From Alphaproteobacteria bacterium (lineage in GTDB: Bacteria; Pseudomonadota; Alphaproteobacteria; VGEJ01): a stretch of 64,000 nucleotides of DNA. Positions 1,967 to 58,094 of the stretch are shown here, one piece after another (positions within the stretch are counted from its first letter, which is position 1; each line of letters starts with the position of its first letter). Both the position numbers and the translations under genes were made by a program. The stretch lies in the NCBI GenBank assembly GCA_965226045.1, contig CBDDBU010000024.1, positions 68,425-132,424 on the forward strand, read 5' to 3'. The notes under the pieces are model-generated. The model was not told the origin of the DNA. It saw only the letters and a list, made by a program, of their open reading frames with translations, and did no database searches.

Positions 1967-2050
1967 TCTAGTACGAAACCGCGCCGGTTGGGCGCCCTCA
2001 TAGCGCCCGGGAGCTGTGCACTCGAGGGTGGCCGTGCTAAGGCCATCGCC

Positions 2051-8762: not shown

Positions 8763-8971
8763 AGCTGCACGGCCTCCAGGATACGGCCTCGCGCCCGCCG
8801 ACGAAAGTGCGCGGCTTGTTCAGCCGGTTTGCCGCGCGCGTGATTGACGCGCCTTTGCGTGATTACCGGCGGAGCAAAGATGCCCCACGCGAGGCGGCCG
8901 GGCGGTCCGGTCGCGGCGGCGCAAAAATGCGCCAGCTATGGTCCCTTGTCTGTTTTGGCGAGGGGCGGGGG

Positions 8972-34396: not shown

Positions 34397-34455
34397 CCGG
34401 CTAGTATTAGCCGGGTAAAATAGGATGTCAATATTACCCGGCTAATAATAGCCGG
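34397..34455 (-). promoter_or_regulatory. Promoter with a double-palindrome operator upstream of the DUF2239 gene
   Basis: Two CCGGCTA-N4-TAGCCGG boxes (34397-34414, 34438-34455); minus strand TTGACA-17 bp-AATACT-6 bp-ATG. Confidence 0.8.
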
Positions 34456-35081: not shown

Positions 35082-35567
35082 ATGACCGAGACCACTTTGC
35101 AACAGCAAGTCGAGCGCCTCACGTCCATCGAGGCGATCAAGGACCTCAAGGCCCGGTACTGCGCCTTCTGCGACGACGGCTACGATGCCGATGGAATCTG
35201 TTCGGTGTTCGTGCCCGACGGCGTGTTCGACGGCGGCGAGGAGTTCGGGGTCCACCAGGGACACGCCGCGATTCACACGTTTTTCAGCGGCGTCTCGAGC
35301 CAGATCACGTTCGCCGCGCACTTGGTGCTGAACCCGGTCATCTCGGTCGATGGCGATCGCGCGAACGCCAAGTGGTGGCTGTTGATGCCCTGTACCCTTC
35401 GCGACGAGGGCGGGCAGTCGGAAGGGCGTTGGCTGGTATCTCAGTACAACGACGACATGGTGCGCCGCGACGGGGTGTGGCGGTTTCAGGCGGTGCGCGC
35501 GGTCGTCCGGTTTTTCGTCCCCCATCTCGAAGACTGGGCCGAGCGGACCATCGCCCGCGACGGCTAA
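35082..35567 (+). CDS. SnoaL/NTF2-like protein (scytalone dehydratase/LinA/BaiE-like)
   Basis: EAIKDLKARYC..CDD, HLVLNPVI, YNDD..RRDG.WRF. Confidence 0.85.
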   Translation: MTETTLQQQVERLTSIEAIKDLKARYCAFCDDGYDADGICSVFVPDGVFDGGEEFGVHQGHAAIHTFFSGVSSQITFAAHLVLNPVISVDGDRANAKWWLLMPCTLRDEGGQSEGRWLVSQYNDDMVRRDGVWRFQAVRAVVRFFVPHLEDWAERTIARDG

Positions 35568-35588: not shown

Positions 35589-36551
35589 ATGGACTGCCAG
35601 CAGACCACCATCCACTTCGCCCATGCCGCCTATCAACTGTCGACGACGTTCTCGCGTCGCGACGCGGGCGTGCCGCACTTCCAGACTTGGACGCCTGAGG
35701 ATACGCGCGCCCGGGTCGCCGAGGCCGAGGTCCTGGTCATCTCGGGCTTATGGCACAACGATCTGCTCGCGGACGCCCACCGGCTGCGCTTTATCCAGTC
35801 ATGCGCCGCTGGTTTCGACCAGTTCGACCAGGACGCGATCCGGGCGAACGGCGTGCGCCTCGCCCATGCCGGCGGCGCCAACGTCAATGCGGTGAGCGAT
35901 CACGCCCTGGCGCTGGTCTTGGCGCTCACCCGCCAGCTCCATACCGGGCGCGACAATCAGCGCGCACAACACTGGCGGGGCATGATCTCCGAGGTAGCGC
36001 GGCGCGAGGAAGAGCTCCCCGGCAAGATCATGCTCATCATTGGCCTCGGCAAGATTGGCGGGCGCATCGCCCGGCTCGCGAGCGCGTTCGGCATGACGGT
36101 GATCGGCGTGAAGCGGGACACGGCGGCGCCGATCGACCATGTCGACGAGCTTCATACGCCGGACGCTCTGCTAGAGCTGCTGCCCCGCGCTGATTTCACC
36201 GTGCTCGCCTGCCCCCTCACGCCAGCGACCCGCGATATCATCGATGCCGACGCATTGGCGGCGCTGGGGCCCTCGTCGTACCTGGTCAACGTCGCCCGTG
36301 GCGGCTGCGTCGATGAGCAGGCGTTGATCGACGCCTTGCGCAGCCGATCCATTGCTGGCGCCGGCATCGACGTTGTGGGGGAGGAGCCGCTTGGCCCCGA
36401 TTCGCCGCTGTGGTCGCTCGAGAACTGCCTCCTCACGCCGCACACCGCCGGCGAGACCCGCAAGTACGAGGACAACGTCCTCGATATTCTGACCGAGAAC
36501 CTCGACCGCCTGTCGCGGCGCGCCGACCCGCTGCGCAATCAGGTCGTTTGA
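35589..36551 (+). CDS. D-2-hydroxyacid dehydrogenase
   Basis: AGFD, IIGLGKIG, CPLT, VNVARG, GIDV..EEPL, TPHTAG. Confidence 0.92.
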   Translation: MDCQQTTIHFAHAAYQLSTTFSRRDAGVPHFQTWTPEDTRARVAEAEVLVISGLWHNDLLADAHRLRFIQSCAAGFDQFDQDAIRANGVRLAHAGGANVNAVSDHALALVLALTRQLHTGRDNQRAQHWRGMISEVARREEELPGKIMLIIGLGKIGGRIARLASAFGMTVIGVKRDTAAPIDHVDELHTPDALLELLPRADFTVLACPLTPATRDIIDADALAALGPSSYLVNVARGGCVDEQALIDALRSRSIAGAGIDVVGEEPLGPDSPLWSLENCLLTPHTAGETRKYEDNVLDILTENLDRLSRRADPLRNQVV

Positions 36552-36638: not shown

Positions 36639-36927
36639 TCACGAAGTTATGCCGCCGAGCTCCTGCCGAATGGTTAGTTCTTCTCCCTCTTCATACTGAA
36701 GAGAATCTCCTGCGATGATATGTGCAGAACCCTTAAGGCATTCCAGCAAGGACGGGTGGGGGAAGATCGACTCTAATATGTAGTTATAAGGGAGGTTCCG
36801 TTCGATCATGATCGCCGCAGCGCCAACAATCGCATCCGCGTTCGGGCCCACCGCGCGAACGCCGAGAATTAGATCGTCACCCGGAGGGCCGACAATAAGC
36901 TTCACGAATCCGATCGGCGGCTGAATG
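36639..36927 (-). pseudogene. C-terminal dimerisation-domain fragment of a dihydrolipoamide dehydrogenase-like oxidoreductase
   Basis: GFVKLIV..ILGVRAVGPNA..IFPHPSLLE (HPxxxE); truncated by IS6; lower GC. Confidence 0.75.
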
Positions 36928-37736
36928 GGCATTGTCAGAGTAAGCCATGTTGGCCTGCGAAGGCCGCCGTGCTGAGGTCATCAGGCCGCCAGGTGTCGAC
37001 ACTCAGCCAGCGCGGCGGAGCGGTTTTGCTTGAAAGTGTCACGGCGGTTCAGGTGACGGTCTTGACTGAAGTGATTGTGGATCGAGGCGTGGACGGCGGC
37101 GAGCTTTTGAAGAGTCTTGGCGTCCCGGAATTTTGCCATTGCTCGCTCTCGTCGTCGGAAGGGTTGATGCGAGTTTTCGGCTCTGTTGTTGAGCCACCGC
37201 CCACACTCCTGAGACGAGGCATTCCCGATCAACACCATCGCGGCCCGGTATGAGGGCAGCCGGTCGGCCACGATGGCCTTCGGCCGCCCGTAGCGCTTCA
37301 TCGTCCGCTTCAAGAACTTCAGCGCGGCCCCACGATCTCGACGTTTTGTCGCGAAGGCATCGAGCACCTCGCCTTCGTGATCCACCGCGCGCCAGAGGTA
37401 GTGCGCCTCCCCGTTTATCTTCACAAACACCTCATCGAGGTGCCAGCGCCAACGGGAGTAGCATTGATCCGGCTTCACTCGGCGCCTCCTGATCTCCGCA
37501 GCGAACATTGGACCGAACCGGTTCCACCAGAACCGCACGGTTTCGTGACAGATATCGATACCGCGCTCGAACAAGAGATCCTCTACCTGCCTGAGCGACA
37601 ACGGATAGCGGACATACATCATCACCGCCAGGCGGATCACCTCGGGCGAGCTGTTGAAGTATCGGAAGGGATTCTTCATCGGCCGACACTACGGATCGCC
37701 CCCGCCCGGCTCAAGCCGATTTTCTCTGACAGTGCT
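36928..37736 (-). mobile_element. Complete IS6-family element (~809 bp)
   Basis: Terminal IRs GGCATTGTCAGA and reverse-complement AGCACTGTCAGA; a single transposase; no target duplication. Confidence 0.9.
36981..37679 (-). CDS. IS6 family transposase
   Basis: WHLDEVFVKING..YLWRAVD, IVAD, LNNRAENSHQP. Confidence 0.95.
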   Translation of the reverse strand: MKNPFRYFNSSPEVIRLAVMMYVRYPLSLRQVEDLLFERGIDICHETVRFWWNRFGPMFAAEIRRRRVKPDQCYSRWRWHLDEVFVKINGEAHYLWRAVDHEGEVLDAFATKRRDRGAALKFLKRTMKRYGRPKAIVADRLPSYRAAMVLIGNASSQECGRWLNNRAENSHQPFRRRERAMAKFRDAKTLQKLAAVHASIHNHFSQDRHLNRRDTFKQNRSAALAECRHLAA

Positions 37737-37926
37737 CCACGGCGGTCGCGGCGCTGGCGATGCCGGTCATGTTGTGATGCTCGGCCAGCCAGTAGCGGGT
37801 GAAGCCCCATCTCTCGGCGTGGCGCGCCAGATCCAGCGTATTCGCGAGCGCGAGGGCGGCGTTTCCCTCCTCGTTGATGGGCGAAAGATCGAGAACGGAC
37901 AGCGGTGGCAGGTGCGGCTCGGTCAT
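37737..37926 (-). pseudogene. LLM-class flavin oxidoreductase N-terminal fragment
   Basis: [30 protein letters not shown], then the IS6 IR; close paralogue of 57014..58045. Confidence 0.9.
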
Positions 37927-38011
37927 TGGGCTTCACACCTGTGTCCAATTTCCTCGACGGCGTCGGGCCGGCGCGGCCGATAGTAGCCCGTCGCCATGCC
38001 GCGCGGCCGGC

Positions 38012-38167
38012 TCAATCTGGTCCCGGCGGGCCGAAGCCCTCGTCCTCGCCCGCGACCTCGCGCGCCAGCTCCGCGATGCTGCGGGCGAGCCGTTCGCCGT
38101 AGCCGCGATGATAGGCGGCGACGAAGCTGAGCCGTGGTAGCGGGCGGTCGGTCGGGATCCAGATCAT
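38012..38167 (-). pseudogene. Possible LysR-type regulator C-terminal remnant
   Basis: Frame MIWIPTDRPLPRLSFVAAYHRGYGERLARSIAELAREVAG.. has host-like codon use; the family guess is weak. Confidence 0.3.
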
Positions 38168-38383
38168 TGGCGGGCTGAGGGAGTTCGCAGCCCGTTGGTG
38201 AGGGGCGCCGCCTCAGGGCCGGGCTGCCGCCCTTGCGCCCTGGCCCTTGGTGCGGGCAGTGTAAGCGCTCCGCCGCCGTCGCTCCGAAGGGGTTGACGGC
38301 CACGGGGTCGGCACTGCTTGGGATGATTGGCCATGGCGGAAAGACGCGCGTCCACGCTGGGTGGAACAAACGATCCGCTGCCC

Positions 38384-39604
38384 ATGAACGACCTACCGGC
38401 TGTTACGCCGGGTCACGGGCTCGATCTGCTCGGCGGCGTCTTGGTGGTCGACATGACCACTTCGATCGCGGGACCCTACGCCACGATGCTGCTCGCGGAT
38501 TTTGGCGCTCGGGTGGTGAAGATCGAGCGGCCTTCCGGCGGAGACGATTCGCGCGGTTGGGGACCGCCGTTTCTTGGCGATCAGTCCCTCTGGTTTTTGT
38601 CGGTGAACCGCAACAAGGAGAGTGTGGCGCTCGACATCGCCAGCCCCGAGGGATACGCAGTCCTGCTGGAACTCATAGAGCACGCCGACGTGGTCGTAAC
38701 CAATCAGCCGCCGCGCGTCCAGGCCAAGTTGGGGACCGACTTTCAGACGCTCAAGGCGGTAAAGGACGATCTCGTATTCGCATCGATCACGGGCTTCGGA
38801 TTGACCGGCTCTCGGGCCGACGGTGTCTGCTACGACCTCATCGCCGAGGGATACTCGGGCGTCATGGATCTTACCGGCGGGCCGGACTCCGAGCCGCAAA
38901 AGCTGGCCGTGCCGGCGGCCGACATGCTGGCGGGGCAGGACGCTGCCATGGCAGTCATGGCTGCCTTGGTCGAGCGTGGGCGCGGCAGGCGGCAACGGCT
39001 GATCGATGTCTCGCTCGTGGAGAGCATGACCCGGTTCTTATCCTGCCGTATCGTTCCTTATCTTGGCTCGGGCGAGGTGCCGCGCCGTTCCGGCGGCAAG
39101 AACAGTCCCATCGCGATCTACCAGGCTTTCGAGACGACCGATGAGCCCATCACCCTGGGCCTTGGAACGGACGCGATCTGGCATCGGTTCTGGAAGGCCG
39201 TCGGCAAACCGGAATACGGACTATCCGAGACGTACGCGACAAACACCGGTCGACGCGCTGGTCGTGAGGCGATCATCACCGAGATCCAGGCGGTTCTGCG
39301 GCGCCGCTCGCGGAAGTATTGGCTCAGGGTCTTCGCTGAGAACCGAATCCCAGCAGGGCCCATCAATCGAGTCGACGAAGCGGTCGAGGATGCCACTCTG
39401 CGTGAGCGCGGCCTCTTCTTCCGGCTCCGTGACGCCAGCGGGGCGGTGCCTCAGGTGGGGTTGGGGATCCATATCAACGGCCACGCCGCCGTGCCGCGCT
39501 CGCTGCCGCCCAGACTCGGGCAACATACCCGCCGCGTGTGCCGTGAATTGCTGGGATACTCTGAAGAACGAGTCTCTGAGCTTGAGCAAGCCGGCGTGAT
39601 CTGA
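38384..39604 (+). CDS. CaiB/BaiF family III CoA transferase
   Basis: AGPYATMLLADFGARVVKIE..GDD, NRNKESV..D, GYSG, R.LPPRLGQHT; the usual catalytic Asp site reads VCYDLIAEG. Confidence 0.92.
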   Translation: MNDLPAVTPGHGLDLLGGVLVVDMTTSIAGPYATMLLADFGARVVKIERPSGGDDSRGWGPPFLGDQSLWFLSVNRNKESVALDIASPEGYAVLLELIEHADVVVTNQPPRVQAKLGTDFQTLKAVKDDLVFASITGFGLTGSRADGVCYDLIAEGYSGVMDLTGGPDSEPQKLAVPAADMLAGQDAAMAVMAALVERGRGRRQRLIDVSLVESMTRFLSCRIVPYLGSGEVPRRSGGKNSPIAIYQAFETTDEPITLGLGTDAIWHRFWKAVGKPEYGLSETYATNTGRRAGREAIITEIQAVLRRRSRKYWLRVFAENRIPAGPINRVDEAVEDATLRERGLFFRLRDASGAVPQVGLGIHINGHAAVPRSLPPRLGQHTRRVCRELLGYSEERVSELEQAGVI

Positions 39605-39620
39605 ACGGAGGCCGGGAGCG

Positions 39621-40400
39621 GTGTCGTTCAATACCATCCTCTACGAAGAGCGCGGCCCTGTCGCCACGCTGACCCTGAACCGGCCCGACGACGGCAACAT
39701 GTTCACGGCCGACATGTGTCACGAGATCCGTAATTGTATCAACGAGATCCGGCGCGAGACGCGGACTCGCGTCCTCGTCATTACCGGTGCGGGCGAAAAG
39801 TTCTTCTGCATCGGCGGGCGCAAGGGGGGTCTGGAGGACACCCGCCTCTACGCCGGCGTTCTTCCCACGCTCGAGATGTACGAGGCGATCGACCGTCTAC
39901 AGAAGCCGGTGATCGCCAGCGTCAACGGCTCCGCCGTCGGCGGGGGCAATGTCCTGCAGATGGTCTGCGATCTGACGATCGCGAAGGCGAGCGCGATCTT
40001 TCGCCAAGTCGGCCCGATGATGGGGTCGTTCGATGCCGGCTACGGTACTTGGTACCTTGAGGATCTCGTCGGCAAGAAGAAGGCGAAGGAGATGTGGTAT
40101 TGCAACCATAAAATCCCCGCCGAGGAGGCGCTGCGTATCGGGCTCATCAACCGCGTCGTGCCGGATGATCTGCTGCGACAGGAGACCAGGAACTTCGCCT
40201 TCGAGGTGGCCGCGCGCGGAAGCTTCGCTCTGGCCTCGGTCAAGGCTGCCTTCAACGCGCGCCACGGAGGGGTCTCCGGCCTGGCGCGAATGGCGCACGA
40301 CCTTTTGTTGCGCGGTTATCTGGACGGCAGCGAGTCGAAGGAGCTGGGGGCGGCCTTCGCGGACCGCCGGGAGCCCGATCCGACGAAGTTTGGAAAATAG
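39621..40400 (+). CDS. MenB/BadI-type crotonase (C-C bond cleaving or forming hydrolase)
   Basis: GGGNVL..CDLTIA, QVGPMMGSFDAGYG, VGKKKAKEMWY. Confidence 0.85.
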   Translation: MSFNTILYEERGPVATLTLNRPDDGNMFTADMCHEIRNCINEIRRETRTRVLVITGAGEKFFCIGGRKGGLEDTRLYAGVLPTLEMYEAIDRLQKPVIASVNGSAVGGGNVLQMVCDLTIAKASAIFRQVGPMMGSFDAGYGTWYLEDLVGKKKAKEMWYCNHKIPAEEALRIGLINRVVPDDLLRQETRNFAFEVAARGSFALASVKAAFNARHGGVSGLARMAHDLLLRGYLDGSESKELGAAFADRREPDPTKFGK

Positions 40401-40406
40401 GAGCCG

Positions 40407-42077
40407 GTGCCCGCGTTTCTGACGTTGCATGATCCAAAGCGGGCCCGGGCCTATTACGACTCGGGCCTGTGGACGAGCGACACCTTCTACAGTTTGATGG
40501 TCGCGCACGCGGCTCGGGCGGGCGATGCCGTCGCTTTGCGGAGCGGTCGCGCGAGCTTGACCTGGGTGGAACTATTGCGCTGGGTCGAGAGCGTGGCGGC
40601 GGCCCTTCGCGCCGCAGGACTGACGATGGGTGATCGGGTATCGATGTGGTTGTCAAACCGCGTCGAGGCGGTGGTCACCTTTCTTGCCTGCTCGCGTGAG
40701 GGCTTCGCCTGCAATCCGTCGCTTCACCGCGCCTACGCCTGCCCCGAGGTCGCCGCGCTGCTGGCGCGGCTGAGGGCGGCAGCGCTCGTGACGGAGCCAG
40801 GTTGGGGGGCCGACCGTGACGAGCGCCAGCTCGATCGATTGCTTGCCGATCTCCCGTCCTTGCGTGTGGTCTGGCAGCCCGATGACTTCCCGAGGCGCGG
40901 CACCGGGTCGGATCGCGAGCCGTCGGATGACCCGGACAAGATCGTCTACCTGGCGTTCACGTCGGGGACCACCGGGGCACCGAAATGCGTCATGCACTCC
41001 GATAACACGCTGCTTGCGAATGCGCGCGATCTCGTCGCGGATTGGAAATTCGATGCCGAGACGCGCCTCCTCACCCTGAGCCCCCTCTCCCACCACATCG
41101 CCTGGGTGGCCGTCGGACAGTGGTTGGTCTCGGGCTGCCAACTGATCACCGACGATCCGCCTGCGGGCCACGGCAGGCTCGACTGGATCGTGGAAACGGG
41201 CGCGACCTACGTGATGGGGGTCCCAACCCACGCGATCGATGTTCTCGCGGAACAGAAGGCGCGCGGGGCGGATCGGATCGGCCAAGTGGAGGTTTTCTAC
41301 ATGGCGGGCGCCCCGATCCCGCCGTCGGTCGCCGAGACGTTGGCTCGCCAGGGCATCACACCGCAGAACGTCTACGGCATGACGGAGAACTCATCGCACC
41401 AGTACACCCATCGCGACGATGCGCCCGAGGTCGTCGTTGGCACCTGCGGTCGCGGAGGGCGCGCCTATCAGGTGCGCATCTTCGATCCTGACGATCCCGA
41501 CAAGCCACTGGGGCCGGGACAAGTCGGTGAAATCGGGGGTCGCGGGGCGACGCTGATGCTGGGGTACTTCGGCAACCAGGATGCCACCGAAGCGAGCTTC
41601 AACCGTGAAGGCTGGTTCCTCTCGGGCGACCTCGGTTCGCTCGATGCGCACGGCAATCTTAAGATCGAGGGACGCCTCAAGGATCTCATCATTCGCGGCG
41701 GCCACAACATCCATCCTGCTCGTATTGAAGCGATTGCCCTGCGGCATCCCGGCGTGCACAAGGCAGCCGCGTTTCCGGTGCCCGATGATCGGCTGGGAGA
41801 GAAGGCCTGCCTTGCAGTAACCGGCGTGGCGGACGGCCAGGCGCTTTTGGCGTTCCTTCTCGCCGAGGGGCTGTCGAAATACGATATGCCGGAGTACTTC
41901 GTTGCCATGGAGGCTTTGCCGTTGACGGCCAGCGGCAAGATCCTCAAGCGCGAGCTGGTCGAGATGCTGAACCGCGGCGATATCGCGCCGGAACCGTTGT
42001 TCTTCCGACCGGGTCGGGCGGCGGAAGGCATGGACGGGTTCGAGGAGAAACGCAAGTCTCAGTTCAAGGATGTCTGA
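40407..42077 (+). CDS. Acyl-CoA ligase (AliA/cyclohexanecarboxylate-CoA ligase-like)
   Basis: FTSGTTGAPK..MHS, YGMTE, SGDLG..GRLKDLIIRGG, LPLTASGKILK. Confidence 0.88.
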   Translation: MPAFLTLHDPKRARAYYDSGLWTSDTFYSLMVAHAARAGDAVALRSGRASLTWVELLRWVESVAAALRAAGLTMGDRVSMWLSNRVEAVVTFLACSREGFACNPSLHRAYACPEVAALLARLRAAALVTEPGWGADRDERQLDRLLADLPSLRVVWQPDDFPRRGTGSDREPSDDPDKIVYLAFTSGTTGAPKCVMHSDNTLLANARDLVADWKFDAETRLLTLSPLSHHIAWVAVGQWLVSGCQLITDDPPAGHGRLDWIVETGATYVMGVPTHAIDVLAEQKARGADRIGQVEVFYMAGAPIPPSVAETLARQGITPQNVYGMTENSSHQYTHRDDAPEVVVGTCGRGGRAYQVRIFDPDDPDKPLGPGQVGEIGGRGATLMLGYFGNQDATEASFNREGWFLSGDLGSLDAHGNLKIEGRLKDLIIRGGHNIHPARIEAIALRHPGVHKAAAFPVPDDRLGEKACLAVTGVADGQALLAFLLAEGLSKYDMPEYFVAMEALPLTASGKILKRELVEMLNRGDIAPEPLFFRPGRAAEGMDGFEEKRKSQFKDV

Positions 42078-42780
42078 CGGTCAGATCATCGTGACCGGCG
42101 GCAGCAGGGGCATTGGCGCCGCGATCGCGTCCGAGCTCGCCGGCCGTGGCCGTGCGGTGGTATGCCTGTCGCGCTCAGGGGTGGCGCCCGCCGGCCACAG
42201 CATCGCCTGCGACATGACCGATGAGATGACCGTGCGGGCGGCGTTGGCCGAGGTGGCGCGTTCAGGTCCCATCACCGGTCTGATCAACAATGCCGGCCTC
42301 CATTTGCGCGGGCCGGCCGCTGAGCTCTCGACCACCGATTACGAGCAGGTCATGGCGCTGAACGCGACCGCGGTCATGGTCGCATCGCGCGAGGCCTACC
42401 CTCATCTGAGGGCGGCAGGCGGCGGGATCATCGTCAATATCGGCTCGTTCTTCGACAAGTTGGGAGTTCGCGACAACCTCGCCTATAGCGCCTCGAAGGC
42501 CGCCGTGGGAGCGATCACGCGATGCTTGGCGGCCGAATGGGCCCGGGAGGGAATCGCGGTCGTGAACGTGGCGCCCGGCTACATCGAGACCGATCTCAAC
42601 CGTGATTTCTTGGTTTGCGAAGGCGTCAGGCGGTGGACCGAGAAGCGCATTCCGGTCGGGCGGGTCGGGCGGCCCCAGGAGGTGGCGCGCCTTGTCGCCG
42701 CATTGGTCATTGAGAACATCTCGTTCCTCACCGGCGAGACCATCTATCTCGACGGCGGCCAGGGGATGAGCCACGGGTGA
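42070..42780 (+). CDS. Short-chain dehydrogenase/reductase
   Basis: TGGSRGIG, NNAG, YSASK, APGYIETD. Confidence 0.92.
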   Translation: MSDGQIIVTGGSRGIGAAIASELAGRGRAVVCLSRSGVAPAGHSIACDMTDEMTVRAALAEVARSGPITGLINNAGLHLRGPAAELSTTDYEQVMALNATAVMVASREAYPHLRAAGGGIIVNIGSFFDKLGVRDNLAYSASKAAVGAITRCLAAEWAREGIAVVNVAPGYIETDLNRDFLVCEGVRRWTEKRIPVGRVGRPQEVARLVAALVIENISFLTGETIYLDGGQGMSHG

Positions 42781-43943
42781 AAATCTTCGAGCAACTCGAT
42801 CGCTGGCGGAACTGGGAGGGTACAGAGCGCATCGTCCTCGATCAGGTCCGGCGCGTCGCCGACGAGATCATCGGCCCGAACGCCGCGCCCCACGACCAAA
42901 GCGGGGGGTTCCCTTGGGACAATATCCGTGCTCTCAACGAGCTCGGACTGAACGCCATCTTCGTGCCCGAGGCCTATGGCGGCGCTCCGGCGCGGTATCG
43001 GCTGTACCTTGAGTGCGTGTCGATCATCTCCGAGGCCTGTGCGTCGACTGGCATCACCTACGCGACCAGCTTCCACGGCATGACGCCGCTGATCGAGTTC
43101 GGCACGGCGGATCAAAAATCTCGACTGCTGCCCCGCATTGCCCAGGGCGGACTGGCTTCCCTGGCGATCACCGAAACTGCGGCGGGATCCGATGCCACAG
43201 CGATGAAGACCCGGTTCGAGCCCGAAGACGATGCGATCGTGGTGACCGGGTCCAAGCTCTTCATTACCAGCGGCGACGTGGCTGATCTGATCCTCCTGTT
43301 CGGCAAGTGGTCCGAGATAGACGATGCCAGAGGCGCGCTCTCTGCATTGGTATTTGAGAAGGGGACTGAAGGTTTCGAGGTCGCGCGCAGGGAAAACAAG
43401 ATGGGGCACCGCGCGTCCTCGACGGCCGCCATCTCGTTTGACGGTTGCCGCGTTCCCCGCGCCAATCTGCTGGGCGCGCCGGGTGATGGACTGGAGATTC
43501 TGCTCGCCTCGCTGAACAGGTCGCGCCCCAGCATCGCCGCCCATGCCGTCGGTATCGCACGGGCCGCGTTCAAGGACATGGTCGCCTACATGAATGAACG
43601 TGCCCAGTCGGGTCGCAGCATAATCGAGTTCCAGGGCAACCAGTTCATGCTCGCCGACCTCGCCAGCGAGCTCGCGTTGGTGGAGAGCTGGCTCGACCAC
43701 GTCGCGGACCTGGTCGACGGCGCCGAGCCCGATTTCGGCATCGCCGCTTCTATCGCCAAGCTGCGTGCTTCCGACCTCGCCATGCGCATGACCACTGAGG
43801 CGGTCCAGATGCATGGCGGATACGGCTACTGCGCCGACTACCGTGTCGAGCGCCTCATGCGGGATGCCAAGATCACGCAGATCTGGGAGGGGACCAATCA
43901 GGTACACCGCCAGCTCATCGGCAGGAGCTTCAGGGCCAAATGA
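42777..43943 (+). CDS. Acyl-CoA dehydrogenase
   Basis: AITETAAGSD, GSKLFIT, KMG.R.S.T, HGGYGY..RDAKITQIWEGTNQV. Confidence 0.93.
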   Translation: MKIFEQLDRWRNWEGTERIVLDQVRRVADEIIGPNAAPHDQSGGFPWDNIRALNELGLNAIFVPEAYGGAPARYRLYLECVSIISEACASTGITYATSFHGMTPLIEFGTADQKSRLLPRIAQGGLASLAITETAAGSDATAMKTRFEPEDDAIVVTGSKLFITSGDVADLILLFGKWSEIDDARGALSALVFEKGTEGFEVARRENKMGHRASSTAAISFDGCRVPRANLLGAPGDGLEILLASLNRSRPSIAAHAVGIARAAFKDMVAYMNERAQSGRSIIEFQGNQFMLADLASELALVESWLDHVADLVDGAEPDFGIAASIAKLRASDLAMRMTTEAVQMHGGYGYCADYRVERLMRDAKITQIWEGTNQVHRQLIGRSFRAK

Positions 43944-44821
43944 CGACGGACGTCAGGACCGTTGGGGTATGTGGGGCCGGCGGGACGATGGGGGCGGGCA
44001 TAGCCATCGTGGCCGCACGGGCGGGCTTCGCGACCGTATGCTTCGACATCTCAAGTGAAGCGTTGAACCGCGTCCGCAGTCAGACTGAGGGTTTTTTCGA
44101 GAAATCGGTGGAGCGCGGCAAAATGAGCGCCGAGGCGAGAGCGGCTGCCCTTGCCCGAATGACGCCGACGACCGAGCTCGAAGGGCTCGGCGAGTGCGAT
44201 CTGATCGTCGAGGCGGTGGTCGAGGACCTCGGCGCCAAGCAGGGGCTGTTCGCTCGGTTGAACGCGGTTTGCCCCGCGCACGCCATTTTCGCGTCGAACA
44301 CCTCGACCCTGTCCATCACCGAGATCGCCTCGGGCTGCGGGCGCGAGGACAGGGTGGTTGGCATGCACTTCTGTTTGCCGGCGCCGCTGATGAAGCTGAT
44401 CGAGATGTCCTCTGGCCTGAACACCTCGCAGGAGGCGATGGCGGCGGCCTGGGCCTGGACGGAGGCCGCCGGCCAAAGACCCGTCAGAACCCAGGATCGG
44501 CCCGGCTTCATCCTCAACGCGCTTGTGGTCCCCTTCAACAACGACGCCATCCGCGCCGTCGAGGCCGGTGTCGCCACGCCCGGCGACATCGACAAGGCGA
44601 TGAAGGTCGGCCTCGGCTACAGGATGGGGCCGCTTGAACTGGTCGACCTGATCGGCCTCGACACGCAAATCCGCTTATGCGAGGCGTTCTATTCCACAAC
44701 TTTGGATCCGCGCGCCGCGACGCCGCCCCTGTTGCGCCGTATGGTGGCGGCGGGCCGGCTCGGCCGCAAATCGGGCCGCGGTTTCTATGCCTATGAAGGC
44801 AACGCGATGTACGGAGGATAG
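43940..44821 (+). CDS. 3-hydroxyacyl-CoA dehydrogenase
   Basis: GAGGTMGAGIA, EAVVE, ASNTS, GMHF..P..LIE, GFILN, GPLEL.D.IGLD, GRKSGRGFY. Confidence 0.92.
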   Translation: MTTDVRTVGVCGAGGTMGAGIAIVAARAGFATVCFDISSEALNRVRSQTEGFFEKSVERGKMSAEARAAALARMTPTTELEGLGECDLIVEAVVEDLGAKQGLFARLNAVCPAHAIFASNTSTLSITEIASGCGREDRVVGMHFCLPAPLMKLIEMSSGLNTSQEAMAAAWAWTEAAGQRPVRTQDRPGFILNALVVPFNNDAIRAVEAGVATPGDIDKAMKVGLGYRMGPLELVDLIGLDTQIRLCEAFYSTTLDPRAATPPLLRRMVAAGRLGRKSGRGFYAYEGNAMYGG

Positions 44822-44826
44822 GCCCA

Positions 44827-45453
44827 ATGCACTACCAGATCGTCAGACGGGGCCAAAGCCGCTCCTTCCCCGATGGCGATCCGTTCCTCGCGGCGGCGGT
44901 CGAGACGGCTGCGGTCGTGCTCTACCTCGGCGTGGCGCCGGTCGCCGACCGAACCAGAGCGGCCATCCTGGTCGAGCTTGGGATGGAGTGCCTGGGCGTC
45001 CACACAAACGAGGAGGCTGGCGAGGAAGGTTCCAACATGTTGGGGTTCGGGCGCTATCGTAACGGCGACGACGACCCGTCCAGGCTTATCGAGCTGGTCC
45101 GCCAGCCGCGTTCGCGATCCTCAGCCATCGAGGCGGCGACCGCGGTGTTCGAGGCCGCCGGATTCGAGGTCGTTTTGTGCGGCGACCAGGCCGGCCGCAT
45201 CGTTGATCGCCTGGTACGCCCCAAATACAACACGGTCCTGCGCTTCCTCGATGAAGGGCTGGCGACCGCCGAGGACTTGGACCTGACCTGCCGACTGGGG
45301 CTCGGCTATCCAGATGGCCTCATCGAACGCGTAGAACGTGGCGGTTTGATCCACCACTACGAGGCCACCCGGGCTCTGTTCGAGGTTTACGGAACGTCGG
45401 CCTATGCGCCGGCCCGTCGCGCCGTGGTCGCCAAGGCGCGGGAGCGGCGGTGA
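44827..45453 (+). CDS. 3-hydroxyacyl-CoA dehydrogenase-like protein lacking the Rossmann motif
   Basis: C-terminal domain (GRIVDRLV..N..LRFLDEGLATAEDLD..LGLGYP); no GxGxxG or HF motif. Confidence 0.75.
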   Translation: MHYQIVRRGQSRSFPDGDPFLAAAVETAAVVLYLGVAPVADRTRAAILVELGMECLGVHTNEEAGEEGSNMLGFGRYRNGDDDPSRLIELVRQPRSRSSAIEAATAVFEAAGFEVVLCGDQAGRIVDRLVRPKYNTVLRFLDEGLATAEDLDLTCRLGLGYPDGLIERVERGGLIHHYEATRALFEVYGTSAYAPARRAVVAKARERR

Positions 45454-46574
45454 TGGCTGGGCCGCTCTCCGGGACGCGCATCCTCGATTTTACGACCCTG
45501 TTGCCAGGGCCCGTCGCCACTTTGCTTCTGGCCGAGGCGGGGGCCGAAGTGATCAAGATCGAGCGCCCCGGCCGCGGCGAGGAGATGCGGTCTTACACCC
45601 CAAAATGGGGATCGGACAGCGTGAACTTCGCCATGTTGAACAGGGGCAAGCGCAGCCTTGCGCTCGATCTCAAGGATCCGGCGACGCGGGCGCGGCTGAG
45701 GGGGTTAATCAAGACCGCCGATGTCTTGGTCGAGCAATTCCGGCCCGGGGTCATGGCGCGGCTGGAGCTCGGCTACGAATCAGTCGCCGAGATCAATCCC
45801 CGAATGATCTACTGCTCGATCAGCGGGTATGGCCAGACTGGCGCGAAGAGCGATGTCGCAGGACACGACCTCAACTACATTGGCGATGCCGGCCTGCTCT
45901 CGCTCAGCATGGGATCGGCGGAGCATCCGGTCATTCCGCCGGTGCTGATCGCCGACATTGCCGGTGGCGCCTACCCCGCGGTCATGAACATCCTGCTAGC
46001 GCTGCGCGAACGCGATCGGACCGGCAGGGGTTGCTGGCTCGATATCGCCATGGCCGACAACGTATTCCCCTTCCTCTACTGGGCGATTGGCAATAGCCGT
46101 GTCGCCGGACAGTGGCCCCGCAACGGCGATGAGCTGGTGACGGGAGGCTCGCCGAGGTATCAGCTCTACCCGACCTCCGACCATCGGTTTGTCGCCGCAG
46201 CGCCGCTTGAGCAGAAGTTCTGGGAGGCGTTCGCGGACGCGATCGGGCTCGAGGCCGAGCGGCGCGACGATGCGCGCGATCCGTCCGCGACCAGGCGACA
46301 CGTCGCCCACATCATACGGGGCCGAACGGCCGATCATTGGGAGCCGCGGTTGAGGGCGGCCGACTGCTGCTGCTCGATTGTGCGGACATTGGCGGAAGCG
46401 CTCGCCGATCCGCACTTCGCCGGGCGTGGCATCCACGCCGAGACGCTTCTGAACGATGCCGGCGAAGAAATACCGGCGCTCCCGGTTCCCATCGTCCCCG
46501 GCTTTCGTGCCCGCCGAGGAGAGGCGCTGTCGGCCCCGGCGCTCGGCGCCGACAACAAGGAGCTGCTCTCATAA
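45450..46574 (+). CDS. CaiB/BaiF family III CoA transferase
   Basis: LPGPVATLLLAEAGAEVIKIE, NRGKRS, FRPGV, GHDLNY. Confidence 0.92.
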   Translation: MMAGPLSGTRILDFTTLLPGPVATLLLAEAGAEVIKIERPGRGEEMRSYTPKWGSDSVNFAMLNRGKRSLALDLKDPATRARLRGLIKTADVLVEQFRPGVMARLELGYESVAEINPRMIYCSISGYGQTGAKSDVAGHDLNYIGDAGLLSLSMGSAEHPVIPPVLIADIAGGAYPAVMNILLALRERDRTGRGCWLDIAMADNVFPFLYWAIGNSRVAGQWPRNGDELVTGGSPRYQLYPTSDHRFVAAAPLEQKFWEAFADAIGLEAERRDDARDPSATRRHVAHIIRGRTADHWEPRLRAADCCCSIVRTLAEALADPHFAGRGIHAETLLNDAGEEIPALPVPIVPGFRARRGEALSAPALGADNKELLS

Positions 46575-47632
46575 GGGCCGTCGTCGTCGACGAGTTCACG
46601 CGGTTTGATCGCGCGTCCTTTCGCGACCTGCCCGATCCGGTGCCGGGTGCTGGCGAGGTCGTCGTCGCGGTCAGCGCCGCGGAGGTGAATTATCCGGACA
46701 TCCTGGTGATCGAAGGCAAATACCAAGTCAGGCCGCCGCTTCCCTTCTCGCCCGGCAAGGCCGCCGCGGGGGTTGTCGAGGCGGTCGGGGATGGCGTTCG
46801 CGGCGTGAAGCCGGGCGACCGGGTCGCGGTCCAGGTGGAGTACGGTGCCTATGCCGAAAAGCTGCGCGCGCCGGCGGCGAATTGCTACCCCTTGCCAGAG
46901 GCCCTGAGCTTCGACCAGGGGGCGGCGTTAGGGCTCGTGTATCAGACGGCCCACTTCGCGCTGCTCGACCGCGCTCGTCTCAAGGCGGGTGAATCCGTCC
47001 TCGTGCTCGGCGCTTCGGGCGGGATCGGCACGGCGAGCACGCAACTGGCGAAAGCTCTCGGTGCGGGCCAGGTGATCGCGGGCGTGTTGGGCAGCAAAAA
47101 CGCGCGGGTGGCCCTGCAGATCGGTGCCGATTGCGTCGTCGATCTCGAGATCGACGATCTACGGGATGGACTACGTGACGAGGTTCGGAAACTCACCGAT
47201 GGCCGCGGCGTCGATATCGTCATCGATCCGGTCGGCGGGCCGGCGACCGAAGCGGCGCTGCGCTGTCTAGCCTGGCGCGGCCGCATCGTGATCATCGGCT
47301 TCGCCGCCGGCTTCATACCGCGCATCGCGGCGAACTACCTGCTGGTCAAGAACATATCGGTGGTCGGCCTTCAGTGGTCAGACTACCGCGAGCGCGACCC
47401 GGGCTGGGTCGCCCGTGTCCAGGACCAGATTTTCGCCCTCGCCAGTGCCGGCCAGATCGATCCTTACATCAGCAGGATCATGCCGCTCGAACGATACGCC
47501 GATGCGTTGAGTCTTCTCCGTGACGGCAGGGCGCAGGGGAAGATCATCCTCTCAGTCGAATCTTCCGGGCCGGGCCCGGGGCGCGAACGAGAGACCGAGC
47601 CAGCGCGCCATCGGACGGAGCAAAAGCCATGA
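46571..47632 (+). CDS. NADPH:quinone oxidoreductase (zeta-crystallin) family, with an apparent ATA start
   Basis: VNYPD..YQVRPPLPFSPG, LVLGASGGIG, DPVGG, LLVKNI; AAGGAG 8 nt before ATA at 46571. Confidence 0.82.
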   Translation: MRAVVVDEFTRFDRASFRDLPDPVPGAGEVVVAVSAAEVNYPDILVIEGKYQVRPPLPFSPGKAAAGVVEAVGDGVRGVKPGDRVAVQVEYGAYAEKLRAPAANCYPLPEALSFDQGAALGLVYQTAHFALLDRARLKAGESVLVLGASGGIGTASTQLAKALGAGQVIAGVLGSKNARVALQIGADCVVDLEIDDLRDGLRDEVRKLTDGRGVDIVIDPVGGPATEAALRCLAWRGRIVIIGFAAGFIPRIAANYLLVKNISVVGLQWSDYRERDPGWVARVQDQIFALASAGQIDPYISRIMPLERYADALSLLRDGRAQGKIILSVESSGPGPGRERETEPARHRTEQKP

Positions 47633-48072
47633 ACATCCTTCTGATTCAGGGCGCCAACATGGAGTATCTCGGCAGGCGCGAGCCCGAGCATTACGGGACC
47701 ACGACGGCCGAGGATCTCGACCGCATGCTGATGGACGAGGCGGGTCGACGCGAGATGAGACTCGACATCCGCTACACCAACCTCGAGGGAGAAGCGATCG
47801 GTTGGATCTATCAGGCGGATCGCGGTGACGGCGCCGGATTGGTGATGAACCCCGGTGGCTTCGTCTACGCCGCATACGCCCTGCGTGACTGCCTCAAAGG
47901 CGTGTCTTTGCCGTATGTCGAGGTGCACATGACCAACCTCGATCGACGGGGGATGCGCTCGGCCACGGCGGGCGAGGCCGACGGCATGATCATGGGCCTC
48001 GGTATCCGCTCCTATGTTCTGGCGCTTGACGCGATCAAAGCGATCATCGCTGGCGACTCCGCCACGAGCTGA
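47629..48072 (+). CDS. Type II 3-dehydroquinate dehydratase-like protein (divergent AroQ)
   Basis: GANMEYLGRREPEHYG, NPGG, ALRD, YVEVHMTN. Confidence 0.8.
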   Translation: MNILLIQGANMEYLGRREPEHYGTTTAEDLDRMLMDEAGRREMRLDIRYTNLEGEAIGWIYQADRGDGAGLVMNPGGFVYAAYALRDCLKGVSLPYVEVHMTNLDRRGMRSATAGEADGMIMGLGIRSYVLALDAIKAIIAGDSATS

Positions 48073-48127
48073 GCCTCATCGGTCAGACGTTGGAAAGATC
48101 CGTCCAGTCGTAGCGGTTGCGGGCGAA

Positions 48128-48485
48128 GGCTTTGTCAGAGTAAGCCAGGTTGGCCTGCGAAGGCCGCCGTGCTGAGGTAATCAGGCCGCCAAGTGTCGCC
48201 ACTCAGCCAGCGCGGCGGAGCGGTTTCTCTTGAAGGTGTCACGGCGGTTCAGGTGACGGTCTTGACTGAAGTGATTGTGGATCGAGGCGTGGACGGCGGC
48301 GAACTTTTGAAGAGTCTTGGCGTCCCGGAATCTTGCCATTGCTCGCTCTCGTCGTCGGAAGGGTTGATGCGAGTTTTCGGCTCTGTTGTTGAGCCAGCGC
48401 CCGCACTCCTGAGACGACGCATTCCCGATCAACACCATCGCGGCCCGGTATGAGGGCAGCCGGTCGGTCACAATGGCCTTCGGCG
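48128..48485 (-). mobile_element. Truncated IS6 copy (3' half plus one IR)
   Basis: GGCTTTGTCAGAGTAAGCC end; near-identical to 36928-37280; homology stops near 48485. Confidence 0.9.
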
Positions 48486-49166: not shown

Positions 49167-50036
49167 CTATCCTTCCTCCGTGGCGACATGGTCGGCGATG
49201 GCGACGATGCGGTACATCGAGCGCAGCACAGGTTTCTCGATCAACTTGCCGTCGACGACAACGAGGCCGCTGTCGCCCGCCTCGAATGCCGCGATGACCC
49301 GCCGGGCGCGGGCGATCGTCTCCGCGTCAGGCGTGAAACAGTCATTGATAACCGGGATCTGCTTGGGGTGGATGGCGGCCTTTCCAGTCATGCCTAGCGC
49401 CGCGCTGGCTGCCGCTTCGACCGCTAAGCCTTCCATGTCGTCGAGATCAAGGAAGGGAACGTCGATCAGATCGAGAGCCGAGCCGGCGGCTGCATGGACC
49501 ATCCGCGAACGGGCATAGACGAGAGTACTCCAGGTCGGTTCGACCCGAAGCTCGGCGGCCATGTCGACGGCGCCGAAGAGCAGCGAATCGATACGCGCAC
49601 TTGCCCGGGCGATCTCATGGCACGCCTCAAGCCCTTCGTTGGTCTCGATGATGACGTGGAAGCGGATCGCCGCGTGGGCTCCGTCGAGCAGCTCCTCGAT
49701 CAGGCGCACCTCGTCGGGCGACTTCACTTTGGGCAACATCAACGCGAGCGGTGCCTTAGGCGCGGTGAGGATGGCGAGCACGTCGGCGAGGCCATCCGCC
49801 GTGCGCAGGCTGTTGATCCGCACCATGCGCTCAATGCCATCCCCGCCCGGAGAACCAGCGACCGTCGGCAGAGTCTTGTCTCGCGCCTCGTTCTTGTGCT
49901 CAGGGGCGATGGCGTCCTCGAGATCGACGCACACAATGTCGGCGCCGGACTTCAGCGCTTTGGCGAACATGTCGGGCCGCGTGCCTGGTGTGAAGATCAG
50001 GCTGCGGCGCGACTGGTACGTCGCTTTGTCTATCAT
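49167..50036 (-). CDS. HpcH/CitE family (citrate lyase beta / CoA ester lyase-like)
   Basis: RRSLIFTPG, VDLEDAI, RINS, MLPKV, IIET, FGAVD, GKAAIHP.QI, GKLIE. Confidence 0.9.
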   Translation of the reverse strand: MIDKATYQSRRSLIFTPGTRPDMFAKALKSGADIVCVDLEDAIAPEHKNEARDKTLPTVAGSPGGDGIERMVRINSLRTADGLADVLAILTAPKAPLALMLPKVKSPDEVRLIEELLDGAHAAIRFHVIIETNEGLEACHEIARASARIDSLLFGAVDMAAELRVEPTWSTLVYARSRMVHAAAGSALDLIDVPFLDLDDMEGLAVEAAASAALGMTGKAAIHPKQIPVINDCFTPDAETIARARRVIAAFEAGDSGLVVVDGKLIEKPVLRSMYRIVAIADHVATEEG

Positions 50037-50230
50037 CCTGCCATGGTCTTCAAGTTGGCCGTTGAGAGCCAAGCGCACAATGGCGCAGCTTGGGTGGGTC
50101 GTACCACCTCGACGAGGTCACCGAGCGAATGTCGTTTGAGGGACGGGATCAAACCAATCCAACACGCCGCCTGATCAGCTCGGCGCCAACTTTCGGCCAT
50201 AGCTCGCGGCGTCCTGCGAAGGGACCCTGG

Positions 50231-52264: not shown

Positions 52265-52349
52265 CTCTTCACTCCGCTTGATCCGCTGATGGCCCCGACG
52301 TCGACAGCCCCGGGGCCAGTATACAAATTTGGCGACCGCGACGCCGTCG

Positions 52350-58045: not shown

Positions 58046-58094
58046 CAGGATTCACGCCTATCTTCGATTTGCTTGGGGGCGTTTGTGAGCCGCC

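Follow-up and report, generated by a model that had tools for sequence, protein, structure and literature searches.

The ten-gene block

The stretch of DNA considered here, the window, comprises 64,000 nucleotides (nt) of contig CBDDBU010000024.1 (positions 68,425 to 132,424, forward strand) in the alphaproteobacterial assembly GCA_965226045.1, and is taken to be chromosomal because housekeeping genes (RsmB, RecQ, alanine racemase) are present. Its subject is a block of ten open reading frames (ORFs), g1 to g10, that lie co-oriented and tightly packed on the + strand at 38333-48072. A preliminary description, made from the sequence alone, saw in the block an intact coenzyme A (CoA)-dependent operon resembling those for alicyclic-acid ring cleavage. 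The ORF calls on the window are:

g1, 38333-39604, + strand: CoA_transf_3 (PF02515), 362.7 bits; alternative start at 38384
g2, 39621-40400, + strand: ECH_1 crotonase (Pfam)
g3, 40407-42077, + strand: AMP-binding ligase, 217.8 bits
g4, 42070-42780, + strand: classical short-chain dehydrogenase/reductase (SDR); adh_short, 145.7 bits
g5, 42777-43943, + strand: acyl-CoA dehydrogenase, all three ACAD domains found
g6, 43940-44821, + strand: 3HCDH_N plus 3HCDH
g7, 44827-45453, + strand: 3HCDH C-domain only
g8, 45453-46574, + strand: CoA_transf_3
g9, 46571-47632, + strand: MDR quinone oxidoreductase, of the PIG3-type NADPH:quinone oxidoreductases
g10, 47629-48072, + strand: DHquinase_II (PF01220), 126.7 bits against a cut-off of 23.3

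Five of the junctions are overlaps of 1-8 nt and four are gaps of 5-16 nt, and none of the ten ORFs contains an internal stop or a frameshift. The layout, the tight junctions and the freedom from frameshifts are thus as first described, and Pfam agrees with the gene families then listed except for two labels, those of g8 and of the pair g6 and g7, which are taken up below. Against the curated NCBIfam models the sole cut-off reached in the block is that of a type II dehydroquinase subfamily model by g10, with a margin of 0.4 bits. What does not survive is the word 'intact': a hydratase gene has been deleted in frame, leaving a 19-codon remnant fused to the ligase gene, and further genes are missing.

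A widespread parent operon

Scanning of one genome per species gave 310 confirmed loci of the same family, 80 of which were fetched for comparison; the counts of gene presence below refer to the 50 loci that have enough flanking sequence. Synteny is kept across the 80 species-representative genomes and 12 plasmids. The 80 loci come from Alpha- and Betaproteobacteria (Rhodospirillales, Xanthobacteraceae, Mesorhizobium, Hoeflea, Defluviicoccus, Alcaligenaceae, Comamonas, Burkholderiaceae), and the plasmids from cultured strains, four of the 12 being typed as conjugative. Among the cultured carriers are Cupriavidus basilensis DSM 11853 (pRK1-1), Aminobacter aminovorans KCTC 2477 (pAA02), Paraburkholderia fungorum OTU2SAUBB1, Celeribacter indicus P73 and Mesorhizobium amorphae CCBAU 01570. 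The canonical order by tblastn is g1, g2, g3, ECH2, g4, g5, g6, g7, g8, (g9), where ECH2 is a crotonase-type hydratase of 253-256 aa. Present most often are g3, g5 and g6 (43 loci each), g7 (42), ECH2 (41), g4 and g8 (37 each), followed by g1 (27), g9 (15) and g10 (3); the seven core genes occur all together in 32 of the 50. A sigma-54 activator adjoins the operon in at least 19 loci, and a promoter of the form TGGCA(C/T)-N5-TTGC lies 50-160 bp upstream of g1 in seven of nine relatives checked.

The AroQ-like gene, g10 in the window, is found within 9.5 kb downstream of g2 in three of the 50 loci, with a fourth, L039, just past that limit. In the closest AroQ-bearing relatives (L039, L044, L050, L052) g9 is followed by genes for a DUF4286 protein, the AroQ-like protein and a PRISE-like reductase, and in L098 by DUF4286 and AroQ-like genes, while on plasmid pRK1-1 of Cupriavidus basilensis the genes for an MFS transporter, DUF4286, AroQ-like, SDR and PRISE-like proteins lie directly upstream of the operon. 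Other neighbours vary with lineage. The Alcaligenaceae operon has a PRISE-like reductase, an FAD_binding_2 oxidoreductase and an FAA-hydrolase-family protein beside it, the FAD_binding_2 family being one that includes the KstD-type dehydrogenases. Such neighbours in some lineages (PRISE-like, FAD_binding_2, FAA-hydrolase-family and FMO-like) fit cyclic-ketone chemistry, and prove nothing. Automated clustering of ORF families in the flanks was contaminated by antisense ORFs, as these are high-GC sequences, and was used only to pick candidates for Pfam scans.

In the full-text literature no paper characterising the operon was found; those retrieved dealt with true Bad/Ali or Mrc clusters or made purely in-silico assignments (PMC4547698). 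As, in addition, no member reaches the AliA, AliB, BadI or MenB cut-offs, the block is, as first stated, without a match to a characterised pathway. It is best described as a trimmed member of an operon family that is widespread, is often sigma-54-controlled and appears to be uncharacterised.

Scars in the window's copy

In 41 of the 50 comparable loci ECH2 stands between the ligase and SDR genes, a position at which the window has no ECH2 gene. Its vestige is nevertheless there. The g3 ORF ends '...FFRPGR|AAEGMDGFEEKRKSQFKDV', its final 19 codons (42018-42074) being the 3' end of the deleted ECH2 gene, and it is 556 aa long against 535-538 aa in the close relatives L004, L038, L039, L044 and L050. 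The tail matches the ECH2 C-termini of L004, L039, L044 and L050, the L039 counterpart of its 19 residues being '...DAEEGMAAFEEKREARFQDA', and by blastn window positions 42023-42123 align across the 3' end of the L039 ECH2 gene and the start of its SDR gene. About 236 ECH2 codons have been removed in frame. The resulting ligase-ECH2 junction is identical in three independent metagenome assemblies, and is present also in a sister lineage, L095.

A second junction tells a similar story. The final 23 codons of g9 (47561-47629, tail SSGPGPGRERETEPARHRTEQKP) are absent from its orthologs and run into the g10 start codon, at the position where L039, L044, L050, L052 and L098 have the DUF4286 gene. 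Searches for DUF4286 or PRISE-like traces at the g9/g10 junction and after g10 gave chance-level matches only; an insertion sequence (IS) relic of the IS6 family starts 56 nt past g10, where the PRISE-like reductase gene of the relatives sits. Because the g3 tail derives from ECH2, and the unique g9 tail lies at the DUF4286 site, the g3/g4 and g9/g10 overlaps are deletion scars. Tidy stop/start overlaps, then, can be scars rather than marks of an intact operon, and the non-canonical look of the window's block is a product of deletion.

A tblastn search of the whole 64 kb for ECH2, a thiolase, the sigma-54 activator, a LivK-type binding protein, the PRISE-like reductase and the FAD_binding_2 oxidoreductase found none of them. 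The thiolase, whose absence had been noted from the start, is indeed lacking in the window, but one is linked to the operon in some relatives: in Paraburkholderia fungorum a 3-oxoadipyl-CoA thiolase (PcaF, 724.7 bits against an equivalog cut-off of 597) is encoded upstream of the operon, next to the g8 ortholog, and the Aminobacter cluster ends with a thiolase gene. Did the AroQ-like protein take the place of the hydratase by design, as the preliminary description supposed from the want of a BadK-type enzyme? The window keeps a fused ECH2 remnant, and relatives carry the AroQ-like gene alongside a hydratase gene. Since ECH2 is present in most comparable loci and its remnant in the window, the absence of the hydratase is to be read, from these comparisons, as a lineage-specific loss and not as a design with AroQ as replacement.

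Selection and variation since the deletions

The sister metagenomic lineage L095, with 87% nucleotide identity to the window, carries both scars, that in the g3 tail and that at the g9/g10 junction, and therefore the ECH2 and DUF4286 deletions predate the split of the two. Across all nine shared genes dN/dS between window and L095 is 0.12-0.26, with dS of 0.30-0.48. The values are 0.12 for g2 and for the N-terminal part of g1, 0.13 for g10, 0.14 for g5, 0.16 for g6, 0.18 for g3 and for g4, 0.24 for g9, and 0.26 for g7 and for the C-terminal part of g1, after an IS1595 insertion. These ratios together with the shared scars indicate that the hydratase-less operon was under purifying selection for much of the time since the split. 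L095 has itself decayed further (at its positions 786-3043 and 8881-10531), with IS1595 inside g1, g8 deleted and the C-terminus of g10 replaced (176 aa). Copies of IS3 lie downstream of the L095 operon.

Within the population, comparison of the window with the near-identical assembly L002 shows 40 single-nucleotide polymorphisms (SNPs) over 13.7 kb, all within the operon (40535-47380) and none in IS6 or the flanks; 22 are synonymous and 18 non-synonymous, and g9 holds 27 of the 40 (17 synonymous, 10 non-synonymous). Their clustering suggests a patch brought in by recombination from a related allele.

The crotonase g2

By sequence and structure g2 matches MenB best (2iex, 194 bits). Its GSFDAGYG stretch and C-terminal Tyr (LRGY) align with the MenB structures 2iex, 2uzf, 4eml and 4els, the GSFDxGYG motif and the C-terminal Tyr being common to both, and the residues concerned are presumably the catalytic Ser, Asp and Tyr of MenB and BadI. 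Shared too is a Gly at the position that binds bicarbonate in type I MenB. The scores nonetheless fall below both MenB cut-offs (NF005637, 223.1 bits against 380; TIGR01929, 194.4 against 342.7), as they do for BadI (TIGR03210, 212 against 467.6), and g2 further differs from MenB in lying in a catabolic operon without other men genes, where the expected direction is ring opening rather than closure. Homologs at about 77-84% identity number in the thousands, across two classes. In a library clustered at 50% identity the family comes down to one full-length representative, with 64% identity and 367 bits, while other full-length sequences reach no more than 42% identity, and it follows that the g2 family is a discrete third clade beside MenB and BadI. 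By analogy g2 would be a retro-Claisen hydrolase opening 2-oxocycloalkane-carboxyl-CoA.

The ligase, the oxidoreductases and ECH2

The ligase g3 scores 233.1 bits against the AliA model TIGR03208, for which the cut-off is 792.3. Among the 25 best of 221 NCBIfam matches of the SDR g4 there is no BadH model, and all those listed are below cut-off; its probable role, judged by analogy, is that of a 2-hydroxyacyl-CoA dehydrogenase acting after the hydratase. In an Achromobacter denitrificans plasmid ECH2 and the SDR are fused as one 505-aa ORF (L101, 15494-17011), a Rosetta-stone hint that suggests consecutive action, like that of BadK and BadH. ECH2 itself, as found in the relatives, is a generic short-chain hydratase (best model 238 bits against a cut-off of 394; PaaF model 197 bits), and what the window has of a BadK-type hydratase is the 19-codon remnant fused to g3. 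The NCBIfam models that g5 fits best are AcrC (317 bits) and that of the cyclohexane-1-carbonyl-CoA dehydrogenase, NF043006 (278 bits against 650), all below cut-off, with the AliB model TIGR03207 further away at 124.3 bits against 575.35.

That there are two genes like those for 3-hydroxyacyl-CoA dehydrogenase, as first listed, is true of the ORFs, but they are not two enzymes as far as the sequences allow one to judge. The match of g7 is to positions 377-490 of PRK08268, the C-terminal extension of the PaaH architecture, and g6 and g7 both map inside a single 504-aa coding sequence of Celeribacter indicus pP73A (L094, 18057-19571). They are predicted to be the halves of one split PaaH-like 3-hydroxyacyl-CoA dehydrogenase (43940-45453), the PaaH equivalog TIGR02279 scoring 277.4 and 37.4 bits for the two genes against a cut-off of 669.4 for an architecture that is here split over two genes. 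The oxidoreductase g9 (TIGR02824, 212.7 bits against 296.8) may be an enoyl or enone reductase.

Two family III proteins

In g1 the PF02515 fold, the catalytic Asp and the lack of the racemase His are those of a family III CoA transferase. Its nearest solved structure is the succinate-hydroxymethylglutarate CoA transferase 9br7 (237 bits), the transferase-type 'YD' and 'AAD(M/L)' are kept in 57 of 57 orthologs, as is a Tyr at the racemase His position, and no NCBIfam equivalog cut-off is reached. Succinyl-CoA-dependent activation of the acid would be its role, to go by its relatives.

The other protein, g8, had been listed as a second CoA transferase, and it does have the CoA_transf_3 fold but is nearer to the alpha-methylacyl-CoA racemases (MCR). 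The nearest structures are MCR 8rmw and 1x74, with 181-184 bits against 159 bits for the best CoA transferase, and the best structural-database match is to 1x74, though the alignment is a modest one (182 bits over residues 1-331). The g8 motifs 'AGHDLNY' and 'ADIAGG' align with the stretch of MCR that holds the catalytic pair His126/Asp156, and all 53 orthologs examined have both 'HDxN(Y/F)' and the Asp. From these motifs g8 is probably of the alpha-methylacyl-CoA racemase type, with a putative role as epimerase of a 2-substituted acyl-CoA. The annotation 'CaiB/BaiF CoA transferase' hides a racemase-type enzyme. An alternative role would be that of an intramolecular CoA transferase, as are Mct and IaaL, both family III enzymes (PMC11659651). 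ThnP, of anaerobic naphthalene degradation, was considered as a further family III analogue and dropped, as the paper on it says family I.

The dehydroquinase paralogue

Though g10 belongs to the same fold family as AroQ, it scores 124.6 bits against the AroQ equivalog TIGR01088, below the cut-off of 169.85, and reaches one subfamily model marginally (130.4 against 130). The subfamily that it heads has over 120 homologs, about 59-73% identical. An alignment was made of 17 of its members, two canonical aroQ copies and two Protein Data Bank (PDB) sequences. All 17 members keep Arg19, Tyr24, Asn75, Asp88, Glu99 and His101 (Mycobacterium tuberculosis numbering), among them the catalytic Arg, Tyr, Glu and His. 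All 17 also have QGAN where AroQ has NGPN, a Tyr in the place of His81 and a deletion of three residues in which Arg112 is lost, and they have 'HM(T/S)N', with Thr (Ser in one), where the canonical enzymes have 'H(L/I)SN' with Ser103. The canonical copies, which share the loci L039 and L044 with a g10-type copy, and the two PDB sequences keep both His81 and Arg112, residues that presumably bind the C4/C5 hydroxyls of dehydroquinate. With these roles assumed, their loss argues against quinate or shikimate as substrate. A substituted or hydroxylated cyclohexane carboxylate had been proposed at the outset, and of that proposal an alicyclic acid in general is still plausible while the quinate/shikimate part is weakened.

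The company kept by the subfamily also sets it apart from AroQ: elsewhere its members have as neighbours genes for SDRs, PRISE-like reductases and DUF4286 or SnoaL_4 proteins, whether or not the CoA operon is there too. A different context is that of a Burkholderiaceae metagenome-assembled genome (L099, 10001-14553), where an AroQ-like member is directly upstream of hydantoinase A/B-type genes. The most economical reading of g10, drawn from its residues and its neighbours, is that it would dehydrate some cyclic beta-hydroxy ketone, though not 3-dehydroquinate, and work together with an enone reductase, and so be neither a housekeeping dehydroquinase nor a substitute for an enoyl-CoA hydratase. 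The annotation 'type II dehydroquinase' covers a paralogue for which dehydroquinate is an unlikely substrate.

Known pathways

The Bad/Ali pathway (AliA, AliB, BadK, BadH, BadI) is known from Rhodopseudomonas palustris and Aromatoleum sp. CIB, with the BadK/BadH/BadI logic established and control by BadR, a MarR-type repressor (PMC9795900). Each of the pathway's five kinds of enzyme (ligase, acyl-CoA dehydrogenase, crotonase hydratase, SDR and MenB-type ring hydrolase) has a counterpart in the parent operon, and the operons share one logic; to this extent the first impression, of a CoA-dependent operon with parts like those for alicyclic-acid ring cleavage, was right. The differences are that the block's proteins are below the AliA, AliB and BadI equivalog scores; that the window's copy is without the hydratase; that many relatives use a sigma-54 activator and not BadR, the window having neither regulator; and that the operon adds a CoA transferase, an MCR-like epimerase, a split PaaH-like dehydrogenase, a quinone oxidoreductase-type reductase and the AroQ-like group.

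In Castellaniella defragrans the products of mrcABCDEFGH open perillyl-CoA, a substituted cyclohexane carboxyl-CoA, via a hydratase, a dehydrogenase and a BadI-type hydrolase, MrcE, which is a true BadI with a reported 88% identity to that of Azoarcus (PMC4109377). The likeness here is that Bad-like modules can handle ring-substituted acids; g2, in contrast, is in a separate clade, about 40-45% identical to MenB-type proteins, and gene content and order differ. Geobacter and Syntrophus follow another route, in which succinyl-CoA:cyclohexanecarboxylate CoA transferase and cyclohexanecarboxyl-CoA dehydrogenase, with 1,4-dehydrogenation to a dienoyl-CoA, lead into the benzoyl-CoA pathway (PMC9795900). 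Activation by a CoA transferase is common ground, as is the better fit of g5 to NF043006 (278 bits) than to AliB (124 bits), but the block is without a second dehydrogenase of the 1,4 kind, and its scores are all below cut-off. With the lower steps of the phenylacetate and beta-ketoadipate pathways (PaaF, PaaH, PaaJ/PcaF) the operon shares the PaaH/PRK08268 architecture of g6 plus g7, and the PcaF beside the P. fungorum g8 ortholog; against this the PaaH score is missed (277 against 669), the dehydrogenase is split in two genes and the window lacks a thiolase.

The flanks

IS6 relics had been reported on both sides of the block. There is IS6 on both sides, but the left copy is complete and the right one alone is a relic:

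36929..37735, - strand: complete IS6-family element of about 807 bp; transposase ORF 36981-37679, 232 aa
37711..37926, - strand: luciferase-like gene fragment (PF00296), 71 aa (gene call in L001)
48128..48484, - strand: IS6 relic, 357 bp, oriented like the left copy and covering transposase residues 133-232

An IS240-type DDE transposase (DDE_Tnp_IS240, 143.5 bits), a size of about 0.8 kb and short terminal inverted repeats (36929-36943 and 37721-37735, 15 nt, 87% complementary) place the left element in the IS6 family; the relic is 96% identical to 36928-37284. The luciferase-like fragment, between IS6 and the operon, sits where many relatives have the sigma-54 activator. On the other side the left IS6 truncates a Pyr_redox_dim fragment (36639-36932, - strand, 97 aa), the C-terminal dimerisation domain of a pyridine-nucleotide disulphide oxidoreductase. 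The two fragments flanking IS6 are signs of IS-mediated gene destruction, and gene fragments are present within 10 kb of the block. No sigma-54 promoter was found upstream of g1 in the window with up to one mismatch allowed, and none is kept in the short homologous upstream stretch common to window and L095. A scan for sigma-70 promoters at 37600-48300 also found none, a result that is uninformative for a genome at 65% G+C, and an Rfam scan of the window gave no matches.

Several further observations concern the surroundings. Just outside the left IS6 a 225-bp stretch (37739-37963) is repeated 20 kb downstream at 57858-58082 with 86% identity, and just left of the element are genes for a SnoaL_4 protein (35082-35567, + strand) and a D-2-hydroxyacid dehydrogenase (35589-36551, + strand). 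The SnoaL_4 protein was entertained as a partner of the AroQ-like protein and rejected: it is 31% identical to the AroQ-adjacent one of Thalassobaculum (L097), a resemblance that may be coincidence, and is not near the operon in relatives. Beyond it lie a near-perfect intergenic hairpin at 34397-34455 (25-nt arms, 92% complementary, 9-nt loop) and an RPE65-family (carotenoid oxygenase) gene split into 32346-33119 (- strand, 257 aa) and 33370-33789 (- strand, 139 aa), either a real pseudogene or a long-read assembly error. To the right of the IS6 relic are genes for an HpcH/HpaI-type acyl-CoA lyase/aldolase (49167-50078, - strand) and, further on, an unusually long SDR (51506-52774, - strand, 422 aa, SDR domain at residues 175-418). 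Elsewhere in the window are a transposase with a Mu-transposase C-terminal domain (8807-10468, + strand) and a second AMP-binding acyl-CoA ligase (22817-24463, + strand).

A proposed pathway and its rivals

It is probable, though not strongly so, that the block is a trimmed descendant of the widespread operon and that the parent opens an alicyclic acid via CoA esters in the following way, the chemistry being argued by analogy. An alicyclic, probably ring-substituted, carboxylic acid would first be activated with CoA, either by g3 with ATP or by g1 with succinyl-CoA, and then desaturated at the alpha,beta position by g5; ECH2 would hydrate the product, g4 would oxidise it to the 2-oxo ester, and g2 would open the ring hydrolytically. 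The dicarboxylyl-CoA would then enter a second round of beta-oxidation with g6 plus g7 and a thiolase encoded elsewhere. Interconversion of C-alpha epimers, e.g. of cis/trans ring isomers, would fall to g8, and where the DUF4286, AroQ-like and PRISE-like enone reductase genes are present, their products, perhaps with the help of g9, would take off a ring hydroxyl, first dehydrating and then reducing; between them, g9 and these products would see to ring unsaturation or hydroxyls. Deletions and IS6 activity have stripped the window's lineage of the sigma-54 activator and promoter, ECH2, DUF4286 and PRISE-like; as the ten genes left stayed under purifying selection, hydration would need another source for the pathway to be still in use.

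Several points weigh against this account. All NCBIfam equivalog scores are far below cut-off, and therefore the chemistry is assigned by analogy only. The window's copy has no recognisable promoter, regulator, transporter, hydratase or thiolase, and the dN/dS ratios, which average both branches since the split, are no proof of present-day use. Two betaproteobacterial loci (L043, L058) have neither ECH2 nor a fusion scar, so that a cluster-encoded hydratase must be dispensable in some backgrounds. Homologs of g2 occur outside the operon, one beside a gene of the metallo-beta-lactamase fold (L090, 9195-10780) and another flanked on one side by RidA and an arylmalonate-decarboxylase-like gene and on the other by an FMO-like monooxygenase (L035, 8763-12437), and hence g2 may have a role other than ring opening.

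Those homologs count for a rival in which the acid is acyclic, e.g. alpha-branched or dicarboxylic, with the MenB-type protein hydrolysing or decarboxylating beta-ketoacyl-CoA independently of a thiolase (acyl-CoA decarboxylases are known in the crotonase superfamily) and the MCR-like protein handling 2-methyl stereocentres. It is a reading that we consider improbable while taking it seriously: g8 falls with the alpha-methylacyl-CoA racemases, g1 lies closest to the succinate-glutarate and succinate-hydroxymethylglutarate transferases, and ECH2 is an ordinary short-chain hydratase. On the other hand the two alcohol-oxidation modules (ECH2-SDR and PaaH-like) are better suited to a ring-opening round plus a linear round, MenB and BadI, the closest characterised relatives of g2, both make or break a ring C-C bond, and some neighbours are in cyclic-ketone enzyme families (PRISE-like, FAD_binding_2, FMO-like). 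Somewhat less probable again is that the window's copy, whatever its parent did, is a non-functional remnant stranded between IS elements and heading for loss. It lacks at least four components of its nearest intact relatives and has no detectable promoter of the sigma-70-like or sigma-54 kind (the former scan being uninformative, as said), gene fragments and IS copies surround it, and its sister has gone further down the same road, with IS1595 in g1, g8 deleted and the end of g10 replaced. Against a dead remnant stand the ten ORFs, of full length relative to their orthologs, bar the added fusion tails on g3 and g9, with all of the catalytic motifs checked by eye in the translations; the dN/dS values, which are this low since a split that postdates the ECH2 and DUF4286 deletions; and the SNPs, which within the population are 22 synonymous against 18 non-synonymous.

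The least probable of the readings, and to our minds very doubtful, is a pathway purpose-built for a quinate- or shikimate-like cyclohexane carboxylate, with an AroQ-like dehydratase in place of a BadK-type hydratase and no need of a thiolase. One can cite for it the translational coupling of the AroQ-like gene to the operon, its repeated association with the operon in Alpha- as well as Betaproteobacteria, the retention in g10 of the catalytic Arg, Tyr, Glu and His, and an MFS gene downstream in P. fungorum, for which a metabolite/H+ symporter model is best (423 bits) and the shikimate transporter is next (369 against a cut-off of 538). What counts against it is that the hydratase was deleted in the window's lineage and coexists with the AroQ-like gene in relatives, that the latter is downstream of g2 in so few of the 50 loci (the three within 9.5 kb, and L039 just beyond), that His81 and Arg112, which presumably bind the hydroxyls of dehydroquinate, are missing from the g10 subfamily, and that L039 and L044 have a canonical aroQ as well.

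Beyond the trimmed descendant of an alicyclic-acid operon, which we prefer, one may go a step further and ask whether the parent operon is an undescribed, oxygen-independent route for hydroxylated or substituted alicyclic (hydroaromatic) acids, in which a neofunctionalised type II dehydroquinase paralogue and the PRISE-like enone reductase, with DUF4286, would strip ring hydroxyls by dehydrating and reducing, the MCR-like epimerase would set the ring stereochemistry right, and an enzyme of the third MenB/BadI clade would then open the ring. This more ambitious proposal is at present an unlikely one, on a par with the acyclic acid.

Outlook

Alicyclic and hydroaromatic acids (naphthenic, terpenoid and quinate-type plant acids) are abundant as carbon sources and as pollutants, and the well-defined CoA-dependent modules for opening their rings have so far been Bad/Ali and close copies such as Mrc. 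To these is now added a second family of operons of this kind, discrete and very widespread, whose MenB-type hydrolases form a clade of their own. As several cultured and sequenced strains carry the operon, some on plasmids, its substrate is directly testable. Were the more ambitious proposal true, an oxygen-independent route would be spread over the Alpha- and Betaproteobacteria, in several hundred genomes at species level as well as on conjugative megaplasmids, and the window would illustrate how the core of such an operon can persist under selection without a hydratase, a regulator or accessory genes of its own.

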